From NCBI GenBank assembly GCA_022705905.1, contig JAKJDO010000001.1:28692-92691 (forward strand): a stretch of 64,000 bases of DNA, written 5' to 3'. The translations under genes were made by a program, and so were the position numbers. This document shows positions 7,102-52,270 of this stretch, piece after piece; position 1 is the first letter of the stretch, and each line of letters begins with the position of its first letter. This DNA is from Patescibacteria group bacterium. GTDB lineage: Bacteria; Patescibacteriota; Patescibacteriia; Patescibacteriales; UBA12075. The notes beneath the pieces are model-generated. The model saw nothing but the letters and a program-made list of their open reading frames with translations, did no database searches and was not told the origin of the DNA.

Positions 7102-8506
7102 CAACAACAAAATTTTGTCTTCCTTGAATATTTACCGGCTATTCTTCTGGATTTTCCTGTCTCTTTTAACCGTCTTACTCCACTCCAAACATTATATTGA
7201 TATTGACGAAGGACATGTTTTAGACGGAGCTTGGAATTTACTTAACGGTAAAAAACTATATTTTGATTTTTTTGAGTTTACCCCTCCTGGCGCTTATTAT
7301 TTAGTGCTTTGGTTATGGCAAATATTCGGCGTTAATTATTTAGTAGCTAAAATCGCGTCTTTAGCCGCGCTACTTCTAGCCGCGCTTGGTATTTATAAAA
7401 TTTGGTCGGCTGTAAGCCGCTATTTTAACATCAGCCGAGATTCTGTCTCTATATATCTAAGCATTTTTATTTTTATAATTTCCACCACCCACCTACCGAC
7501 TATCAGTTACCATACCTTCAATCTCGCTTTTACTGTCTGGGCGGTTTATTTTTTTATAAAAGCGCTCTCGATCCAGCCAAATAAAAATATTATTTTTTTT
7601 TCCGGATTGCTAACTGGCGCAGCTGCTCTATTTATGCAAAACAAGGGCGGTGCTCTGTTTTTAACCTTATTCTTATTTACCCTTTTTTTATTAATTAAAG
7701 AAAGAAAAAAAATATGGCTGCAATCATTGCTAATTTTATCAGTTGCGACGACACTGCCGATTATAACCCTGGCGGCTTTCTGGCCAGTTGGTTTGCTTTT
7801 TAAAAATTTAATCGCATTCCCGATATTTAACTACACCAAAGTGGCAATGGTTCCTTTTTATCTACTCTTTTTCTTTATTATTGTCTGGACGGGTGTTATT
7901 TGGCTGCTTAGAAAAAAAACCGCCACCGCCATACAATTTCTTTTTTTCTGGCAATTTATTTTGTTGTTTTCTATTTATTCTTTGGCCGACCATGCGCATC
8001 TATTGCTAGCTATATTCCCACTACTGGCGCTACTACCCGCTGTCCTTAATGAAATCAAAACGTCAATTTACAAAAATTATTTTTTTATCCTGACGGTGGT
8101 AACTATTTTTATCATTGTCTATCCCGCTCTTGTTTTTCTTAACAATTTTAAAAATTTGCCAACTGCAAAAGATTATAAATTTTTAGATTATATTGCCGCT
8201 AACTGCGACAAAACAGAATATTTATACGCCGGGCCGTTTATGTGCGGAATTTATTTTGAAACTCGAAAAATAAACCCAACGCCTTACGGCTGGCTTATTA
8301 CCAACCACCACACCGACGACCAATTTACCGACGCTAAAGAAAAATTAGAAATAAACACTCCAGCTTGCGCAATTTTAAATTACCAATTAGTCAAAAAATA
8401 TGGCTATAACATTGACAATCCGGTAGACAATTTTATTAAAGAGAACTATTATTTAGCTTATACCAGCAATGATGTAATGGTTTATAAAAAAAACCAACCA
8501 CAATAA
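7073..8506 (+). CDS. ArnT/PMT-family (GT83/GT39-like) GT-C membrane glycosyltransferase.
   Basis: A DE-type first-loop motif (DIDEGHVLDGAWNLL..PPGAYY) is followed by multiple TM helices. The ORF track starts it at 7022, overlapping the upstream gene. Internal Met codons at 7055 and 7073 are more likely starts, which implies translational coupling. Confidence 0.5.
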   Translation: MLKITTPINSNNKILSSLNIYRLFFWIFLSLLTVLLHSKHYIDIDEGHVLDGAWNLLNGKKLYFDFFEFTPPGAYYLVLWLWQIFGVNYLVAKIASLAALLLAALGIYKIWSAVSRYFNISRDSVSIYLSIFIFIISTTHLPTISYHTFNLAFTVWAVYFFIKALSIQPNKNIIFFSGLLTGAAALFMQNKGGALFLTLFLFTLFLLIKERKKIWLQSLLILSVATTLPIITLAAFWPVGLLFKNLIAFPIFNYTKVAMVPFYLLFFFIIVWTGVIWLLRKKTATAIQFLFFWQFILLFSIYSLADHAHLLLAIFPLLALLPAVLNEIKTSIYKNYFFILTVVTIFIIVYPALVFLNNFKNLPTAKDYKFLDYIAANCDKTEYLYAGPFMCGIYFETRKINPTPYGWLITNHHTDDQFTDAKEKLEINTPACAILNYQLVKKYGYNIDNPVDNFIKENYYLAYTSNDVMVYKKNQPQ

Positions 8507-18186: not shown

Positions 18187-18212
18187 ATTTAACAACAATT
18201 TATCTTATACAC

Positions 18213-18243
18213 AAAAAACTGGATTTTCTAATCCAGTTTTTTG
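18213..18243 (+). terminator. Rho-independent terminator after hup: aactggatt-ttct-aatccagtt followed by tttt.
   Basis: 9-bp stem plus T-run. Confidence 0.6.
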
Positions 18244-18248
18244 TTTTG

Positions 18249-31383: not shown

Positions 31384-32385
31384 CTATTTTATTCCTATTT
31401 TATTTTTTACTTCTCCCAAAGTCGTCTTAGCAATTGGTTCTACTTTTTTTGCCCCAGATTTTAATATCTCTTCTGTTTCCTCCGAACTGATCATATTATA
31501 CTTCTTCTGGAATTCCGTCAAGAACTGCTTAACAACCTCTGCCAAGTCTTTCTTCAAATCTCCATAACCCTTACTCTTATATTTATTTTCTAAATTTTTT
31601 ATCGTTTCATTTGCTAACAAAGAATAAATAACTAACAAATTGGAAATGCCTGGTTTATTTTTTACGTCGTATTTAATTTCGGAACCAGAGTCAGTTTCGG
31701 CGCGCATAATTTTTTTCGCGGCTTTGGCAGGATCGTCAGTCAAAGTAATATAGTTATATTCGCTCTTGGCGCTTTTACTCATTTTTTTAGTCGGATCATC
31801 TAAACCCATAATACGTGAACCTTCTTTTAAAATTTTTGGCTCAGGAAGAACAAAAGTCTCGCCAAATTGTTGATTAAAACGCCTGGCTAATTCTCTGGTT
31901 AATTCAACATGTTGCAATTGGTCATCACCAACCGGCACAACGTCAGTATTGTAAAGCAGGATATCAGACGCCATTAAAACCGGATAATCAAATAGTCCAA
32001 CACCGGCATTATCTTCTTTGCCGTCGCCAACTTTATCTTTAAATTGGGTCATGCGATATAAATCGGACATCCGCGTTACTGTATTTAAAATCCAAGCCAA
32101 CTCCGTGTGTTCCGTCACATCTGACTGTTGAAAAATAATTGATTTTTTTGGATCAATACCAGCGGCTAAATAAATTTTAGCGACTTCGATAATTTTCTTT
32201 TTTAAAACTTCTGGATCTTGTTTGACTGTTATGGCATGATAGTCAACTACACAAAAAATACAATTGTACTCATCTTGCAGTTCTCGCCATTGAGTTATAG
32301 CGCCAAGGTAATTGCCAATATGCAAATTGCCGCTTGGCTGAATGGCGGAAAATATTGTTTTTTTATTGTTTGTTGCTTGTTTCAT
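31384..32385 (-). CDS. trpS: Tryptophan--tRNA ligase.
   Basis: HIGH-type motif (PSGNLHIGNY) and KMSKS. Confidence 0.9.
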   Translation of the reverse strand: MKQATNNKKTIFSAIQPSGNLHIGNYLGAITQWRELQDEYNCIFCVVDYHAITVKQDPEVLKKKIIEVAKIYLAAGIDPKKSIIFQQSDVTEHTELAWILNTVTRMSDLYRMTQFKDKVGDGKEDNAGVGLFDYPVLMASDILLYNTDVVPVGDDQLQHVELTRELARRFNQQFGETFVLPEPKILKEGSRIMGLDDPTKKMSKSAKSEYNYITLTDDPAKAAKKIMRAETDSGSEIKYDVKNKPGISNLLVIYSLLANETIKNLENKYKSKGYGDLKKDLAEVVKQFLTEFQKKYNMISSEETEEILKSGAKKVEPIAKTTLGEVKNKIGIK

Positions 32386-32433
32386 ATAACCCTATTTTAT
32401 CTTAAAAATTACTTAATTTCAAGTTTGTTTTTA

Positions 32434-32464
32434 TGGTGAGGAATAAGTTTTACTTATTCCTCAC
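32434..32464 (-). promoter_or_regulatory. Perfect 13-bp hairpin GGTGAGGAATAAG-tttta-CTTATTCCTCACC immediately upstream of trpS.
   Basis: Seen directly. There is no canonical U-run, so this may be an attenuator or processing structure. Confidence 0.4.
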
Positions 32465-32485
32465 CATTCGATTGCAGACACGAGC

Positions 32486-32677
32486 CTAGACGCCTGTCCA
32501 GGGCCCTCTCCTTGTTAACTTTTCCCTGAGATCATCTGGCTTAAATCTGTCGGCATTTCTCATTCCACGTCTTTTATTCCGCTGCTGTTTTCTAGTTCCT
32601 GCTTTTTTTCTATGTCTCTCAATTGCTTTGACGATTGCCTTGTCGCGGTCACTGTTGGAATGATCCTTCATAAACAT
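32486..32677 (-). CDS. 63-aa very basic protein, possibly ribosomal protein S21-like.
   Basis: Strong RBS (agaggagga + 5 nt + ATG). KAIERHRKKAG...RFKPDDLREK loosely resembles S21 (ALRRFKR..EKAG...YEKP). GC is about 45%, higher than the host. Confidence 0.35.
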   Translation of the reverse strand: MFMKDHSNSDRDKAIVKAIERHRKKAGTRKQQRNKRRGMRNADRFKPDDLREKLTRRGPWTGV

Positions 32678-32693
32678 TCCTCCTCTTAGTCGT

Positions 32694-32864
32694 TTAGTCG
32701 TTGAAATACATCCGAAACCTTCTTGTGCATCCGCACTCTTTACGCGGGCTGCCCCAACCTGGCCTTATTGTTTCTATTTCTTTGTTGCAATGCGGACAGA
32801 CTTCTTTATTCCCCTCCTTAGTTTCTTGCTTGTTTTTTCTCTGAGTCGTCGTTTTGCCACCCAT
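32694..32864 (-). CDS. 56-aa zinc-ribbon protein (CPHC...CGC).
   Basis: RBS aaggaggt + 6 nt + ATG (Met66 of the longer ORF in the track). The gene starts immediately after the T-box terminator. Confidence 0.4.
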   Translation of the reverse strand: MGGKTTTQRKNKQETKEGNKEVCPHCNKEIETIRPGWGSPRKECGCTRRFRMYFND

Positions 32865-32880
32865 TCTTACCTCCTTGATC

Positions 32881-33285
32881 TTTAAATTTTTTCGTAAAAT
32901 AAAAACCCTCGTCTTTTTCTCCACACTAAAAATATGGAAAAAAGGACGAGGGCATTTGCCACCCGCGGTGCCACCTTCTTTGTCTCGCCGTAGTCCCGAG
33001 CATTCAGGACGAAGGCGGATTCGTTTTTTATCTGACGAATTAAAAAAATCCGTCAGCAAAACGGATCAAGACCACTTTTACTGACTCCATCCTACGCCAA
33101 GGCTCCGGATGGCAAGCCTACCAGCCTAAATTTGACGCGACGACATCAGTTATCCTTATTACGGAGGAAGCCGAATAACCACTAACGCAGTTATCACCCA
33201 CCCTGTCGAATGACGGGGTAAAATATGCCCAACCTCCCGCGAAAACGGGAGACATATTTATAGGTTTTAATAAATGTAATGTTCT
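32881..33285 (-). promoter_or_regulatory. T-box riboswitch leader, probably Trp-specific, with terminator and antiterminator.
   Basis: Minus-strand T-box sequence AAGGUGGCACCGCGGG (plus 32962-32976) matches the consensus AGGGUGGNACCGCGG. The UGGC bulge would pair with a tRNA ending GCCA (G discriminator, as in tRNA-Trp). The terminator is CCCUCGUCC...GACGAGGG plus U-run (plus 32906-32951), and its 5' strand overlaps the antiterminator partner CCUUUUUU of AAAGAAGG. The region is GC-rich and structured. Upstream (33297-33324) is a TTGACT-16-TACTAT promoter-like element. Confidence 0.55.
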
Positions 33286-33388
33286 AAAAATATAGTAGCA
33301 CAAACAAAAAATTAGTCAAATTATTGACAAAATAATATTTTTATGATATCTTTCCAAAAAAACAAAAAACAGCAAGGAGGCAACAGTC

Positions 33389-34980: not shown

Positions 34981-35008
34981 AAAAATCACCGAACAGGTGA
35001 TTTTTTGT
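34981..35008. terminator. Bidirectional terminator between rpsT and holA: aaaaatcacc-gaacag-gtgatttttt.
   Basis: Perfect stem flanked by an A-run and a T-run. Confidence 0.6.
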
Positions 35009-36057: not shown

Positions 36058-36314
36058 TAAAAACTGTAACAAAATGGCTTAAATTACGTATTATTAAGTA
36101 GAACTAATTTAATAATATGATAAATAGAAGATTACCGCAAATTAAACCAATCGTCAACCACGGCTCTGCTTGTGGCACTGGCTACATGTCAGACTTTTAT
36201 CGATCTGGCTGGTTTAAATTTGTATTGTAATCTTTTTTTCATATACATTCTCCAAATTTAGCCTTACCGGGTCGGTAAGGCTAAATTTTATTAACCAAAA
36301 AACTAGAAAGGAGA

Positions 36315-38582: not shown

Positions 38583-41423
38583 TTATTTTAGCTCTCCCCA
38601 ACTATCTCCCGTATTAGCATCAACTACCACCGGCACTTTTAACTTTAACACTTCTTCCATTATCTTTTTAATCTTCTCAGACAATTCCTGTACTTTAGCC
38701 GATTTTATTTCAAAAAGCAATTCGTCGTGTACTTGTAAAATCATTTTTACATCTTCCGTTTTATATTCTTTTTTTATCATCTTCTCAATTTCAATCATGG
38801 CGATCTTTATCATATCCGCAGCTGTGCCTTGCAGCGGTGTGTTGATAGCCATGCGCTCGGCCGCTTTTTTAACCATAACTACTGACGAATTTATTTCCGG
38901 TAAATAACGCCGGCGGCCAAATAGCGTTTCCGAATAACCATTCTCCCGCGCTTCATCCACTACTTCTTCCACCCATTTCTTTATGCCTTGATAGGCTTTA
39001 AAATAATTGGCAATAAATTCACGCGCTCTGTCATAAGAAATGTCAGCCGTCTGCGACAAACCGTGCGGACCTTGACCGTATAAAATACCGAAATTAGTTG
39101 CCTTAGCTTCACGGCGCATTTCTTTCGTAACCTCCTCTAATTTAACGCCGTTAATAGCGGCGGCAGTGGCTATATGAATATCTTCCCCTTTTTTAAAAGC
39201 CTCGATCATTTTCTTATCGCCTGACATATGCGCCGCTAACCGTAACTCAATCTGTGAATAATCTAAACTTAATAATTTACATCCCGAGCAAGCAACAAAA
39301 GCCTTCCGAATTTCATTGCCCAATTCGGTGCGCACCGGAATATTCTGCAAATTCGGTTCGGTTGAAGATAAACGACCAGTCGCCGTAATCGTTTGATTAA
39401 AGCTGGTATGCAAGCGACCATCTTTTTTGCTAATTAAATCCGGCAAGGCATCGGCATAAGTTGAACTTAATTTTGCTAACTCGCGATATTCTTGAACTAG
39501 CCTAATAATCGGATGGGCGTCTTTTAATTTATCTAATTCATCAGCAGCGGTTGAAAATCCGGTTTTATTCTTCCCGATATTTAAAGACGAAATTTCTAAT
39601 TTTTCAAACAAAATTTCGCGTAACTGCTGAGTTGACTTAATGTTAAACTCTATGCCAGCTAATTTATATATTTTTTTCTCTAATGTCTTTATTCTTTTGT
39701 CTATTTCACGGCTTAATTCTACCAAAACATTTTTGTCGAGTAACACGCCTTTGTCTTCCATATCGGCCAGCACCGTCACAAGCGGCATTTCAATTTCATA
39801 AAATAATTTTTCCATTTTCTGTTCGCGCAATTGTTTGCTTAATGCATTTACGAGCCGCCTAGTAAAATCAGCGTCTTCACAGGAATACAAGCTTAACTTC
39901 TCAGCTTCAACTTCGTTAAAATTTTTCTTATCGCGCCCCTTGCCGAGCAAATCTTCTTTTGATATTTTTTCAAAACCTAATTCCGTAAACGTCACGGCGT
40001 CTAAATTATGCTGGCGTGTACCCGGATTTAACAAATAAGAAGCGATCATCGTATCAAAAGCAACGTTAGCTACATTAATGCCGCTGCTTTTCATTACTCG
40101 ATAATCAAACTTAATATTATGACCGTATTTCTCAATCTTGGGATTCTCAAAAATCGACCGTAAATTTTCTAGCCAAGGATGAATTTTATTCTCTTCTTTT
40201 TTGTTAAAATTGAAAAGAGTGTTTTGCTTGTCATCCTGAGCGCTAGCGAAGGATCTCGTTTTTTTCACCACGCTTACAAAATACGCCTCGCCGTCTTTCC
40301 AGGAAAAACTAATACCTAATAAATTTGCAATCAGGGGATCAAAAGAATCAGTTTCTGTGTCAAAAACAAATCTGCTTTGTTTTTTAAGTTTGCTTAAAAA
40401 ATCTAAAAACTTTTTCTCGTCATCGACTAAAATATATTTAAATTCTTTTTTATTCCTCTCAAATTTATCAAAAATCTCTCCTCCTTTCTCTCGCCCCCTC
40501 CCTTTTTGAAAGGGAGGGGCGGGGAGGGTTTTAGCGCTGCCTGAAAACAAACTATGAACGCGCGGCAAAAGCGACTTAAACTCTAAATCGCTAAACAATT
40601 TTACAACTTCTTCTTGCTTGATATTGCCAAACCGAGCATCGTCTAAATTAAACTTAATTTTTACATCACGTTTAATCGTTGCTAAACTTTTTGACATCAA
40701 CGCATCTTTTTTATGCTCTTTCAATAATTCTCTAATTCTATCTTTGATTTTAGCTGAATTAATATTTTTATAAACTCCATCTAAGGTTTTAAATTCAATT
40801 AATAATTCACTCGCGGTTTTCTCGCCAATGCCTTTTACGCCCGGAATATTATCGCTCGGATCGCCGCGCAAAGCCTTATAATCAATCATCTGCTCCGGTT
40901 TTAAACTAAAGCGCGCTTTCACTGTTCTAGCATCATACAAAATACTGTCAGACAAACCACGGCTCATCGTATAAACTTTAGTATTATCATCAACTAACTG
41001 CAAAGTGTCCATATCACCAGTTACAATAATCTTTTCAATATCACCATCAACTCTGGCGGTAATCGTGCCGATTAAATCGTCAGCTTCAAAGCCAGCTTCA
41101 GCAAAAACAGGGATGGCAAAAGCTTCTGCTAATTCTTTAACACGCGGAATTTGCGTATATAAATCATCCGGCGCTTTAACGCGCGTCGCTTTATAATCTT
41201 TATATTCAATATGCCGGAAAGTCGGCCCAGCTTTATCTAAAGTTAAAACAACATAATCAGGCCTAAACTCTTTTAACGCTTTAAGTAAAACAGTCGCAAA
41301 ACCATAAACAGCATTAACCATCTCCCCTTTTTTAGTGGTCATAGTTGGCGGTAAAGCGTGAAAACTGCGATGTATCAGCGCATTTCCGTCAATTATTATC
41401 ATTTTTTCCTTTTTGCTGGTCAT
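38583..41423 (-). CDS. polA: DNA polymerase I (5'-3' exonuclease, 3'-5' exo-like and polymerase domains).
   Basis: N-terminal IIIDGNALIHRSFHA, exo motif FDTETDS, and polymerase motifs (DYSQIELR, QVHDELLFE). Confidence 0.9.
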   Translation of the reverse strand: MTSKKEKMIIIDGNALIHRSFHALPPTMTTKKGEMVNAVYGFATVLLKALKEFRPDYVVLTLDKAGPTFRHIEYKDYKATRVKAPDDLYTQIPRVKELAEAFAIPVFAEAGFEADDLIGTITARVDGDIEKIIVTGDMDTLQLVDDNTKVYTMSRGLSDSILYDARTVKARFSLKPEQMIDYKALRGDPSDNIPGVKGIGEKTASELLIEFKTLDGVYKNINSAKIKDRIRELLKEHKKDALMSKSLATIKRDVKIKFNLDDARFGNIKQEEVVKLFSDLEFKSLLPRVHSLFSGSAKTLPAPPFQKGRGREKGGEIFDKFERNKKEFKYILVDDEKKFLDFLSKLKKQSRFVFDTETDSFDPLIANLLGISFSWKDGEAYFVSVVKKTRSFASAQDDKQNTLFNFNKKEENKIHPWLENLRSIFENPKIEKYGHNIKFDYRVMKSSGINVANVAFDTMIASYLLNPGTRQHNLDAVTFTELGFEKISKEDLLGKGRDKKNFNEVEAEKLSLYSCEDADFTRRLVNALSKQLREQKMEKLFYEIEMPLVTVLADMEDKGVLLDKNVLVELSREIDKRIKTLEKKIYKLAGIEFNIKSTQQLREILFEKLEISSLNIGKNKTGFSTAADELDKLKDAHPIIRLVQEYRELAKLSSTYADALPDLISKKDGRLHTSFNQTITATGRLSSTEPNLQNIPVRTELGNEIRKAFVACSGCKLLSLDYSQIELRLAAHMSGDKKMIEAFKKGEDIHIATAAAINGVKLEEVTKEMRREAKATNFGILYGQGPHGLSQTADISYDRAREFIANYFKAYQGIKKWVEEVVDEARENGYSETLFGRRRYLPEINSSVVMVKKAAERMAINTPLQGTAADMIKIAMIEIEKMIKKEYKTEDVKMILQVHDELLFEIKSAKVQELSEKIKKIMEEVLKLKVPVVVDANTGDSWGELK
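40230..40258. repeat. Solo arm of the GTCATYCTGAGCG...CGAAGRATCTCG repeat family, in-frame inside polA (encodes ..RSFASAQDDK..).
   Basis: Same 29-mer family as 41528-41577, 51801-51866 and 62016-62135. Confidence 0.5.
40476..40535. repeat. G/C-rich palindromic repeat inside polA: cgccccctcccttt-ttga-aagggaggggcggggaggg followed by tttt. It encodes ..LPAPPFQKGRGREKGGE..
   Basis: Hairpin-forming, compositionally aberrant, and the same family as the holA-UTR and yidD-yidC elements. Confidence 0.5.
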
Positions 41424-42642: not shown

Positions 42643-42674
42643 CAAAACAGACCGGAAAAATCGGTCTGTTTTTT
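42643..42674. terminator. Bidirectional terminator: aaaacagaccgg-aaaaa-tcggtctgtttttt.
   Basis: 8-bp stem with flanking A-run and T-run. Confidence 0.6.
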
Positions 42675-44834: not shown

Positions 44835-45013
44835 GAGATTGGCGCCTTTCTTGTCTTTATTTTTAAAATTATTTTTTAACTGATAATAACCAATATATTT
44901 AAATTAGAATAAATAAAAAAAGCTTTAATATTAGCTTAAAATTTACAACTCAATTATCATTATTGCTAAAAATAACGTACCATGTTTTTTACCTCCAGTC
45001 AACCAAAAACAAA

Positions 45014-45043
45014 AAAGACTGTAAAAAAATATACAGTCTTTTT
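45014..45043 (-). terminator. Terminator after rnj: aagactgta-...-tacagtctt plus U-run on the minus strand.
   Basis: 9-bp stem with A-run and T-run. Confidence 0.55.
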
Positions 45044-51874: not shown

Positions 51875-52254
51875 GGGGATGATAGGATTCGATAATAATG
51901 CCATCTAAAAACATTCGGAACGTGCCTGACACCACGCAAATCTGTCAAAAACAATAAGTGCAAAAAACTTATTAGCAAAAGCTATGGACGCTTTCCGCGC
52001 ACCAGCTTTCGCTCCTGTTCTTGCCTAAAAACGCAAGAGCCATCCGTCCAGTCAGGCCTGATAGCTGGTCACGGGTGTCATAACATCGGGCTTAGTTTAT
52101 AAAGACGTTCTGATTTATAGACAAAATTAAAGAACTAGCTATTATCGGTTTTGTTTAGTTTTCTACGTTAGTGGTTAAATTCCAAACTAAACTATTTCCG
52201 TAAATATGTTTTCTAGATTATTATTAGACGCGGGTTCAACTCCCGCCATCTCCA
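51875..52254 (+). ncRNA. ssrA: tmRNA (ssrA).
   Basis: 5' GGGGATGATAGGATTCGA and 3' GACGCGGGTTCAACTCCCGCCATCTCCA form the tRNA-like domain. An internal tag ORF (..AKAMDAFRAPAFAPVLA*) spans about 51975-52026. The gene is immediately downstream of smpB. Confidence 0.85.
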
Positions 52255-52270
52255 CTCGGTTTTAAAAAAG

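Follow-up and report, generated by a model that had tools for sequence, protein, structure and literature searches.

What does a T-box-like RNA control when two tiny genes stand between it and a tryptophanyl-tRNA synthetase gene? The question arises in a 64,000-nucleotide stretch of a Patescibacteria group bacterium (contig JAKJDO010000001.1, positions 28,692 to 92,691; the whole stretch is called the window here), where the minus strand carries, in this order, a T-box leader, two small open reading frames (ORF1 and ORF2), a perfect hairpin and trpS, all as described in an earlier sequence-only reading. We consider it likely that the leader, at 33269-32897 on the minus strand, is a functional tryptophan (Trp)-specific T-box transcription attenuator belonging to a truncated-Stem-I class found across the Patescibacteria, and we suggest that it may govern mainly ORF1-ORF2 instead of trpS.

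The T-box class to which the leader belongs

The sequence-only reading had proposed a Trp-type T-box on this strand, and covariance models bear it out. A scan of the 64-kb window with Rfam at the gathering score returned no T-box, and a permissive local search of 1.2 kb with RF00230 gave 29.4 bits (E 2.2e-4), below that score. In the RF00230 alignment the segment running through Stem II, IIA, Stem III and the antiterminator fits well, with two long insertions, and 87 Stem I model positions are replaced by 58 unaligned nucleotides. The gathering score was likewise reached by none of 25 related leaders (0/26 with the window leader), which we take as a limit of the model and not as absence of the element.

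Related leaders were found among 80 trpS loci from reference genomes, five of which (L009, L013 and L037-L039) have a T-box core upstream of trpS and share the architecture of the window leader, and in a metagenome scan with the conserved Stem II/IIA core, which yielded 119 stretches, some 100 of which are genuine leaders of this type. The class thus has some 100 members in Patescibacteria metagenome-assembled genomes and metagenomes. We aligned 33 compact, non-redundant leaders, the window leader excluded. Their RNAalifold consensus has compensatory changes in 37 of 52 pairs and independently recovers Stem I, Stem II, IIB, an extra helix and the terminator. For the covariation test an explicit antiterminator-form structure with the IIA/IIB pseudoknot was written; 96.4% of its cells pair, compared with 38-52% after a shift of the 3' partners by 1-3 columns, changes on both sides are seen in 28 of its 43 pairs, and the observed values were reached in none of 500 shuffles. 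A class covariance model (R1), built from the same alignment without the window, matches the window leader over its full length with 123.9 bits (E 3.6e-28), the sole strong match in 64 kb. The covariation, the shuffles and the R1 score together argue that the element is real: the window leader is almost certainly a genuine T-box-class RNA, and it is a member of a coherent short-Stem-I family that Rfam's model fails to capture. T-boxes and Patescibacteria (or candidate phyla radiation, CPR) were not mentioned together in the literature searched, the coverage of which was incomplete, so that this is weak evidence of novelty.

The leader comprises the following parts.

32897..33269, minus strand: whole T-box leader, short-Stem-I Trp class (R1 class model, Rfam RF00230)
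33292..33319, minus strand: promoter-like site, TTGACT-16-TACTAT, with a TG extended -10
33223..33257, minus strand: truncated Stem I, with lower helix AUAUGU/GCAUAU, upper helix CUCCCG/CGGGAG and cap UUUUCG
33229..33231, minus strand: specifier codon UGG (Trp), followed by G33228; UGGG is invariant in the class
33200..33219, minus strand: variable hairpin between Stem I and Stem II, ACCCCGUC AUUC GACAGGGU
33174..33195, minus strand: Stem II, GAUAAC/GUUAUU, with six covarying pairs and the invariant apical UGCGUUAGUG at 33189-33180
33153..33173, minus strand: Stem IIA/B pseudoknot, with IIA CGG/CCG and the F-box-like CCGUAA at 33164-33159
33081..33149, minus strand: extra helix between IIA/B and Stem III, CUGA(UGUCG...GGAG)UCAG, with about 55 nt inserted in this leader
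32982..33072, minus strand: expanded Stem III (GUCUUG.../...CGAGAC), flanked by AAGUG (5') and AAAG (3')
33042..33066, minus strand: pause- or terminator-like hairpin AUCCGU/ACGGAU plus U7 inside Stem III (terminator scan)
32977-32962, minus strand: T-box core AAGGUGGCACCGCGGG, with the UGGC bulge at 32973-32970
32938..32981, minus strand: antiterminator, with A1 AAAGAAGG/CCUUUUUU, the 7-nt bulge UGGCACC and A2 GCGGG.../...CCUCGU
32896..32952, minus strand: intrinsic terminator CCCUCGUCC...GACGAGGG (32952-32906) plus U-run UUUUUAUUUU (32905-32896)

Measured from the promoter-like site the leader is about 390 nt long; it is hairpin-rich, has a GC content of 0.47 and folds with a minimum free energy of -143.6 kcal/mol (z-score -5.4 against shuffles). 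L037 and L038 have a near-identical promoter (TTGACT...TGCTACTAT) ahead of their homologous leaders. The 3' side of Stem I bears a 5-nt bulge, GUUGG, and across the class its helices show compensatory changes in 10 of 12 pairs; the window pairs of Stem I and of the extra helix were taken by reading the window sequence. Only part of the class has a hairpin in the position of 33219-33200. IIB pairs the loop UCCU (33168-33165) with AGGA (33156-33153), and in the class it is 100% paired with compensatory changes in three of its four pairs, being AGCU/AGCU in L037 and L038. IIA was fixed by the search pattern, and its invariance therefore carries no evidential weight.

The A1 strands AAAGAAGG (32981-32974) and CCUUUUUU (32945-32938) enclose the bulge UGGCACC (32973-32967), which has the 7-nt UGGNACC form, and A1, A2 and the terminator pairs all covary in the class. 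The 5' strand of the terminator is shared with the 3' strands of the antiterminator (CCUUUUUU/CCCUCGUCC), which makes the two forms mutually exclusive, as had been proposed from the sequence; their folding energies are -37.2 kcal/mol for the terminator form and -15.6 kcal/mol for the antiterminator form, the latter with the 3' terminator strand blocked.

The sequence-only reading had also expected a Stem I with a UGG specifier and a UGGC bulge able to pair with a discriminator G, and both were found. UGG lies at 33231-33229, it is followed by a purine, and UGGG occupies the specifier in every genuine member of the class, with a freely varying base before it. The search pattern retrieved UGG leaders only; the specifier was judged instead by flanking-base variation and by the genes that the leaders precede. 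These cargo genes match a Trp specifier: they include trpB-trpS, trpB2, trpS, anthranilate synthase I (trpE) and two TrpD-like (Glycos_transf_3) families, besides an EamA transporter, an ELFV dehydrogenase and GCS2-like proteins. In the T-box bulge 49 members read UGGU and 30 read UGGC, the Trp-leader pattern of TBDB, in which the bulge pairs directly or by G:U wobble with discriminator G73 (PMC7778990). Of six tRNA-Trp genes identified in related loci, five carry G73. Taking the invariant UGGG, the varying 5' base, the bulge, G73 and the cargo together, we regard the window T-box as very probably Trp-specific.

From the established T-box mechanism we infer how such a leader would work, in its tRNA binding, its switch and the fate of its transcript. 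Transcription would start near 33285. With tRNA-Trp charged, the nascent RNA would form the terminator (32952-32906) and RNA polymerase would halt in the U-run (32905-32896). As uncharged tRNA-Trp builds up, its anticodon CCA would pair with the specifier UGG, held in the Stem I bulge and presumably buttressed by Stem II and the IIA/B pseudoknot, and its free 3' end GCCA would pair with the bulge UGGC (32973-32970). This pairing would stabilize antiterminator A1 (AAAGAAGG/CCUUUUUU) and allow the polymerase to read through into ORF1 and ORF2, the genes expected to be under the most direct T-box control. On the evidence of the sequences, attenuation of ORF1-ORF2 transcription in this way is a likely outcome.

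Several observations weigh against such a reading of the leader. The RF00230 gathering score that the window leader fails to reach, with its 29.4 bits, is as high as 93. A long Stem I with an AG bulge and a distal loop, the tRNA-elbow platform, was not found in the window leader: above the bulge there is only a 6-bp helix, as in the class at large, whose members have 5-11 bp, small loops and no conserved motif. The hairpin with U7 inside Stem III could end some transcripts early. One related locus (L131) has a tRNA-Trp with A73 beside a UGGC T-box, and the 64-kb window has no tRNA-Trp gene from which to read the discriminator base of this organism. Promoter-like matches, finally, are common in AT-rich DNA, and the window has 16 against 9.5 expected.

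A few further observations concern R1 and the class. The next R1 match in the 64 kb, at 40402-40533 (minus strand; 16.9 bits, E 0.009), overlaps the hairpin CCCCTCCCTTTTTGAAAGGGAGGGG (40495-40519) and is probably a mere terminator-like match. In L037 (about 930-1040), L038 (about 1600-1700) and L039 (about 1640-1720) the stretch between the T-box terminator and trpB holds another conserved element, AUAUUCUACAAUCG..UUCUGAAUAUUGGCG with a hairpin and then a U-run behind it, which looks like a second attenuator in tandem. Two loci, L120 (4204-4279) and L150 (3103-3178, minus strand), have a G73-bearing tRNA-Trp(CCA) gene that precedes the Trp T-box by about 120 nt and shares its strand, so that the sensor is encoded right behind its ligand; L120 has a second tRNA-Trp gene at 7330-7402. 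A GCS2-like protein (glutamate-cysteine ligase family 2) of about 250 amino acids recurs as the first gene behind the leader, in L086, L118, L121, L137, L151, L179, L192 and L196, and an ELFV-type amino-acid dehydrogenase (L120, L122, L124 and L150) and the two TrpD-like families are likewise recurrent cargo of Trp-type leaders.

Probable control of the small genes and uncertain control of trpS

Downstream of the leader the window has these features.

32694..32864, minus strand: ORF1, a 56-aa Cys4 zinc-ribbon-like protein (CPHC...PGWG...CGCT), with Shine-Dalgarno (SD) sequence AAGGAGG at 32876-32870
32486..32671, minus strand: ORF2, a highly basic 61-aa protein (AIVKAIERHRKKAGTRKQQRNKRRG ... 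RGPWTGV) read from the second ATG, with SD GAGGAGG at 32685-32679
32433..32467, strand not assigned: perfect hairpin 3' of ORF2, 16 bp including A-U ends, about -29 kcal/mol
32394..32422, minus strand: promoter-like TTGAAA-17-TAAAAT, ending 8 nt before the trpS ATG
31384..32385, minus strand: trpS, tryptophanyl-tRNA synthetase, 333 aa (Pfam PF00579 tRNA-synt_1b, E 8.6e-80)

The SD of ORF1 lies about 20 nt past the T-box terminator and outside its hairpin, and the two small genes, each with a perfect SD, follow the T-box directly. The position of trpS is less straightforward. Neither the trpS of the window nor that of any of its 43 Patescibacteria relatives is preceded by an SD (relatives of this trpS are 60-75% identical), and 17 of the 43 have a strict TTGnnn-17-TAnnnT upstream, compared with 2.45 +/- 1.47 in shuffles. 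The spacing of this element is always 17 nt, and between the end of its -10 hexamer and the ATG there are either some 20-30 nt or only 6-9 nt. The short distance, seen in the window, L002, L003, L008, L015 and L026, suggests that these trpS mRNAs may be leaderless or nearly so. A similar element is seen by eye inside the 3' end of trpB in L037-L039, where the strict criterion is missed. Moreover, the closest TrpS relatives (L001-L008) have neither a T-box nor a small Cys ORF; L008, which is among them, has the same divergent lgt/trpS synteny. Because a strong hairpin and a conserved promoter-like element lie upstream and an SD is lacking, trpS is probably expressed mainly alone, and on balance we lean, if only slightly, towards its autonomy.

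The strongest competitor, to our minds less probable though well short of implausible, is a single T-box operon, ORF1-ORF2-trpS, in line with the sequence-only reading, in which operon the hairpin would be a stabilizer or processing site and trpS would be expressed mainly through T-box read-through. T-box control of trpS is classical in Firmicutes, and weak R1 matches lie directly upstream of trpS in L064 and L070. At least eight members of the class are arranged as T-box, trpB and trpS, with trpS starting 25-50 nt past trpB. The hairpin at 32467-32433, which the sequence-only reading had rightly placed before trpS while giving it 13 bp, has no U-run on either strand and is no canonical terminator; in this genome a terminator usually consists of a hairpin set between an A-run and a T-run. 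It is therefore plausible that polymerase reads through into trpS, and the transcript may well run on into that gene. A single operon does not, however, account for a promoter-like element that adjoins trpS and is kept in relatives without a T-box, for the missing SD, or for the closest relatives, which express trpS without any T-box at all. In L009 and L201, furthermore, a canonical terminator closes the small-ORF unit, in L009 before trpS. We therefore retain the view that the T-box may act mainly on ORF1-ORF2 and that read-through would add at most a starvation-dependent increment to trpS expression. The proposal that the small ORFs are co-regulated with Trp charging has thus been strengthened for ORF1 and ORF2, a conserved pair found at the ends of trpB2 operons elsewhere, and its extension to trpS, which has a promoter-like element of its own and no SD, is uncertain. 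The suggestion that the genes might be a horizontally acquired module fits their patchy distribution, the closest trpS relatives being without it.

The remainder of the window offers some points of reference. A second perfect 16-bp hairpin at 36254-36288 (AAATTTAGCCTTACCG GGT CGGTAAGGCTAAATTT), without a clear T-run, resembles the one after ORF2, and the long hairpins at 18211-18244, 34981-35005, 42644-42672 and 45012-45043 are classic bidirectional terminators with A-run and T-run flanks. An ordinary tmRNA (transfer-messenger RNA) gene is located at 51875-52257 (149 bits, tag AKNLLAKAMDAFRAPAFAPVLA), and there are nine tRNA genes, tRNA-Trp not among them.

Lineage-specific expansions and the specifier frame

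The unusual length of the leader is due to two lineage-specific expansions, the extra helix and Stem III. All four outer pairs of the extra helix covary in the class, and the helix is absent from the Rfam consensus. The purine flanks of Stem III, AAGUG and AAAG, fit the RRRxG-Stem III-AA motif described for the discriminator domain of T-boxes (PMC7583486). Within Stem III the element AAUCCGUUUUnCUGnCGGAUUUUUUU (33066-33025, minus strand) is conserved in sequence in 13 class leaders, the others being L086, L100, L121, L128, L130, L153, L162, L191, L192, L195, L197 and L199. The 3' arm of its hairpin may instead pair with the downstream AAUUCGUCAG, and this alternative helix shows, by eye, compensatory changes (GACGG/UCGUC versus GGCGG/CCGCC). 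Possible roles for the element are those of a programmed pause site, of a weak terminator acting early, or of another switch within the T-box.

Two such large inserts, set beside the compact members of the class, might be taken as degeneration, and the leader as a decaying relic that no longer switches; the very low Rfam score and the absence of trpB2 from between leader and ORF1, where L009, L200 and L201 have it, would agree. We find this very unlikely, since all conserved positions and helices of the class are intact in the window, the terminator and antiterminator strands complement each other perfectly, the Stem III insert is not random but conserved in a sub-family with 12 other leaders, and the locus recurs identically on 23 contigs from several samples.

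Equally, a functional leader might read an overlapping triplet of the bulge and sense another tRNA, either as GGG for Gly, one base 3' (33230-33228) and likewise invariant in the class, or as an NUG codon. This is hardly credible. Any of the four bases can stand 5' of UGG (U 59+17, G 11, C about 5, A about 5), which excludes the NUG frames; bacterial tRNA-Gly has U73 as its discriminator, and the UGGC/UGGU bulge pairs with the G73 of tRNA-Trp; and the cargo consists overwhelmingly of Trp genes.

The small proteins and known regulatory systems

Homologs of both small proteins had been suggested as a check on this locus, and they exist. Word-indexed protein searches with ORF1 and ORF2 gave self matches only. 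An exhaustive phmmer search found P0003 (63% identical to ORF1) and P0004 (57%), and a profile search added P0009 and P0010, all four being 50-63% identical; C23, P24, C26, E29, I30, P35, G36, W37, G38, R41, C44, G45, C46 and T47 are invariant in the family. The ORF1 homologs of L200 and L201 come after the 3' end of a trpB2 whose product is 75-77% identical to the TrpB2 of L009. Directly 3' of the ORF1 homolog in L201 comes a 60-aa ORF, 52% identical to ORF2, and then a canonical terminator; it shares with window ORF2 the pattern AKAIxRHxxKAxTRKQQRxKxRG and the C-terminal RGPWTG, and L200 has a partial ORF2 homolog. The P0010 and P0004 contigs have a long gene followed by the ORF1 homolog, with a 64-aa gene next in the case of P0004. 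Neither protein is thus an orphan, ORF1 because of its HMMER and profile homologs and ORF2 because of the neighbour of the ORF1 homolog in L201. Since the homologs stand in the same order behind trpB2, comparison of these loci indicates that ORF1-ORF2 is a conserved gene pair of Trp operons, closing trpB2 operons elsewhere; in the window it stands directly behind the T-box with no intervening trpB2, unlike in L009, L200 and L201.

That ORF1 and ORF2 are chance ORFs or leader peptides in a long trpS 5' UTR, as the self-only word searches, the lack of Pfam, NCBIfam or PDB matches and two loci (L138 and L184) 100% identical to the window, with no substitutions for comparing coding constraint, might suggest, is scarcely conceivable beside four ORF1 homologs that keep the Cys residues, PGWG and CGCT, an ORF2 homolog of the same length, C-terminus, order and SDs, and surrounding DNA that is otherwise unrelated to the window. 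By this comparative evidence both small ORFs are real, conserved genes.

Gene calls in the databases differ. The NCBI record annotates a 61-aa gene at ORF2 and, for ORF1, a 76-aa product (PLH29_00345; window 32864-32924, minus strand) whose GTG start codon falls within the terminator's 3' strand, and the JGI calls have a 121-aa ORF that crosses the T-box. The homologs and the SD show the 56-aa form of ORF1 to be the right one.

Neither protein has a Pfam (E<=1), NCBIfam or PDB match. AlphaFold2 models of ORF1 are of moderate confidence (pLDDT, the predicted local distance difference test, 67.5 and 61.6), with a core of two beta-hairpins at about 75-84; we are moderately confident that this modelled core is zinc-ribbon-like, and Foldseek returned only generic Zn-ribbon matches, none significant (E>1). 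Three identifications were rejected: ORF1 as a homolog of anti-TRAP, DnaJ-CR or LysW (no significant match), ORF2 as the S21-like protein that the sequence-only reading had thought possible (no support in the databases just named), and the ORF1-ORF2 region as a trpB pseudogene remnant (tblastn with TrpB and TrpB2 finds no trpB anywhere in the 64-kb window). Our confidence in any specific function for ORF1 or ORF2 is low.

Small Cys-rich proteins are nevertheless a recurrent feature of the class. Of the 68 non-redundant leaders that have sufficient sequence behind them, 25 are followed by a small ORF (<=110 aa) as the first one preceded by an SD, and 15 of these 25 ORFs carry at least two C-x(1-4)-C pairs. 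Taking ORFs of 40-110 aa, 18 of 22 directly behind leaders are of the Cys-pair type (a count that includes the hand-picked L134, L155 and L013), compared with 16 of 505 background ORFs, that is, small SD-preceded ORFs of the same loci (odds ratio about 138, Fisher p about 1e-20). They fall into several unrelated sequence families; those of L114, L129 and L180 bear CxxCxGxG repeats with weak, non-significant similarity to DnaJ-CR or Anti-TRAP. We put forward tentatively, as a doubtful proposal, that ORF1, ORF2 and the other first-gene Cys-pair proteins might be effectors of the starvation signal: small Zn-ribbons made only in the presence of uncharged tRNA-Trp, acting at the protein or RNA level on TrpB2-based Trp salvage, on TrpRS or on translation, and thus an equivalent of anti-TRAP reached by convergence in a phylum that lacks TRAP, under a transcriptional T-box class that does without the Stem I elbow platform.

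The known precedent is rtpA (yczA) of B. subtilis, where a Trp T-box induces the Zn-binding anti-TRAP protein of about 53 aa upon accumulation of uncharged tRNA-Trp (PMC10327191). The regulatory logic and the size class of the protein resemble those of ORF1, a putative Zn-binding protein that sits behind a Trp T-box and has four conserved Cys and a modelled two-hairpin core. ORF1 differs in lacking a match to PF15777 (Pfam, E<=1) and any anti-TRAP chain in a PDB profile search (E<=10), in its Cys spacing, CPHC-x17-CGC, and in having a basic partner, ORF2. To our knowledge, TRAP is not known in Patescibacteria. The class attaches two small proteins, orphans as regards known domain families, and a wider set of Cys-rich ORFs to the Trp-starvation response, and these are candidates for protein-level regulators or TrpB2 partners in organisms of minimal metabolism. 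The locus is also a caution that a T-box beside an aminoacyl-tRNA synthetase gene need not control that gene.

With the class I transcriptional T-boxes (RF00230; tyrS and trpS of B. subtilis) the window leader shares a specifier that lies in a bulge of Stem I with a purine behind it, Stem II, the IIA/B pseudoknot with its F-box-like CCGUAA, the purine flanks of Stem III, the 7-nt UGGNACC bulge between A1 and A2, the UGGU/UGGC of the Trp family and a competing terminator with a U-run. Class I T-boxes bind the tRNA elbow through the distal platform of Stem I. In contrast, Stem I of the window leader is truncated to a 6-bp upper helix without AG bulge or distal-loop platform, Stem II in its class is a short hairpin capped by the invariant UGCGUUAGUG, IIA/B and Stem III are separated by an extra covarying helix, all 26 members tested fall short of the Rfam gathering score, and the hosts belong to another phylum, the Patescibacteria. 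We conclude that the window T-box is a variant of the class I type with uncharacterised cargo. Truncated-Stem-I transcriptional T-boxes are widespread in Patescibacteria and invisible to Rfam-threshold annotation, and this blindness (0/26) implies that riboswitch censuses under-count regulation in reduced genomes.

Naturally truncated Stem I is otherwise described for the class II, translational ileS T-boxes of Actinobacteria, which act by SD sequestration (PMC7583486, PMC7778990). These, too, lack the elbow platform and keep Stem II and IIA/B, a domain that by analogy is presumably essential for tRNA binding when Stem I is truncated. The window leader differs from them in its terminator with a U-run ending at 32896 in place of an SD sequestrator, its Trp instead of Ile specifier, its phylum, its extra helix and its expanded Stem III. 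The patescibacterial class therefore offers a natural test of co-transcriptional tRNA capture without the elbow platform, hitherto studied only in actinobacterial ileS leaders.

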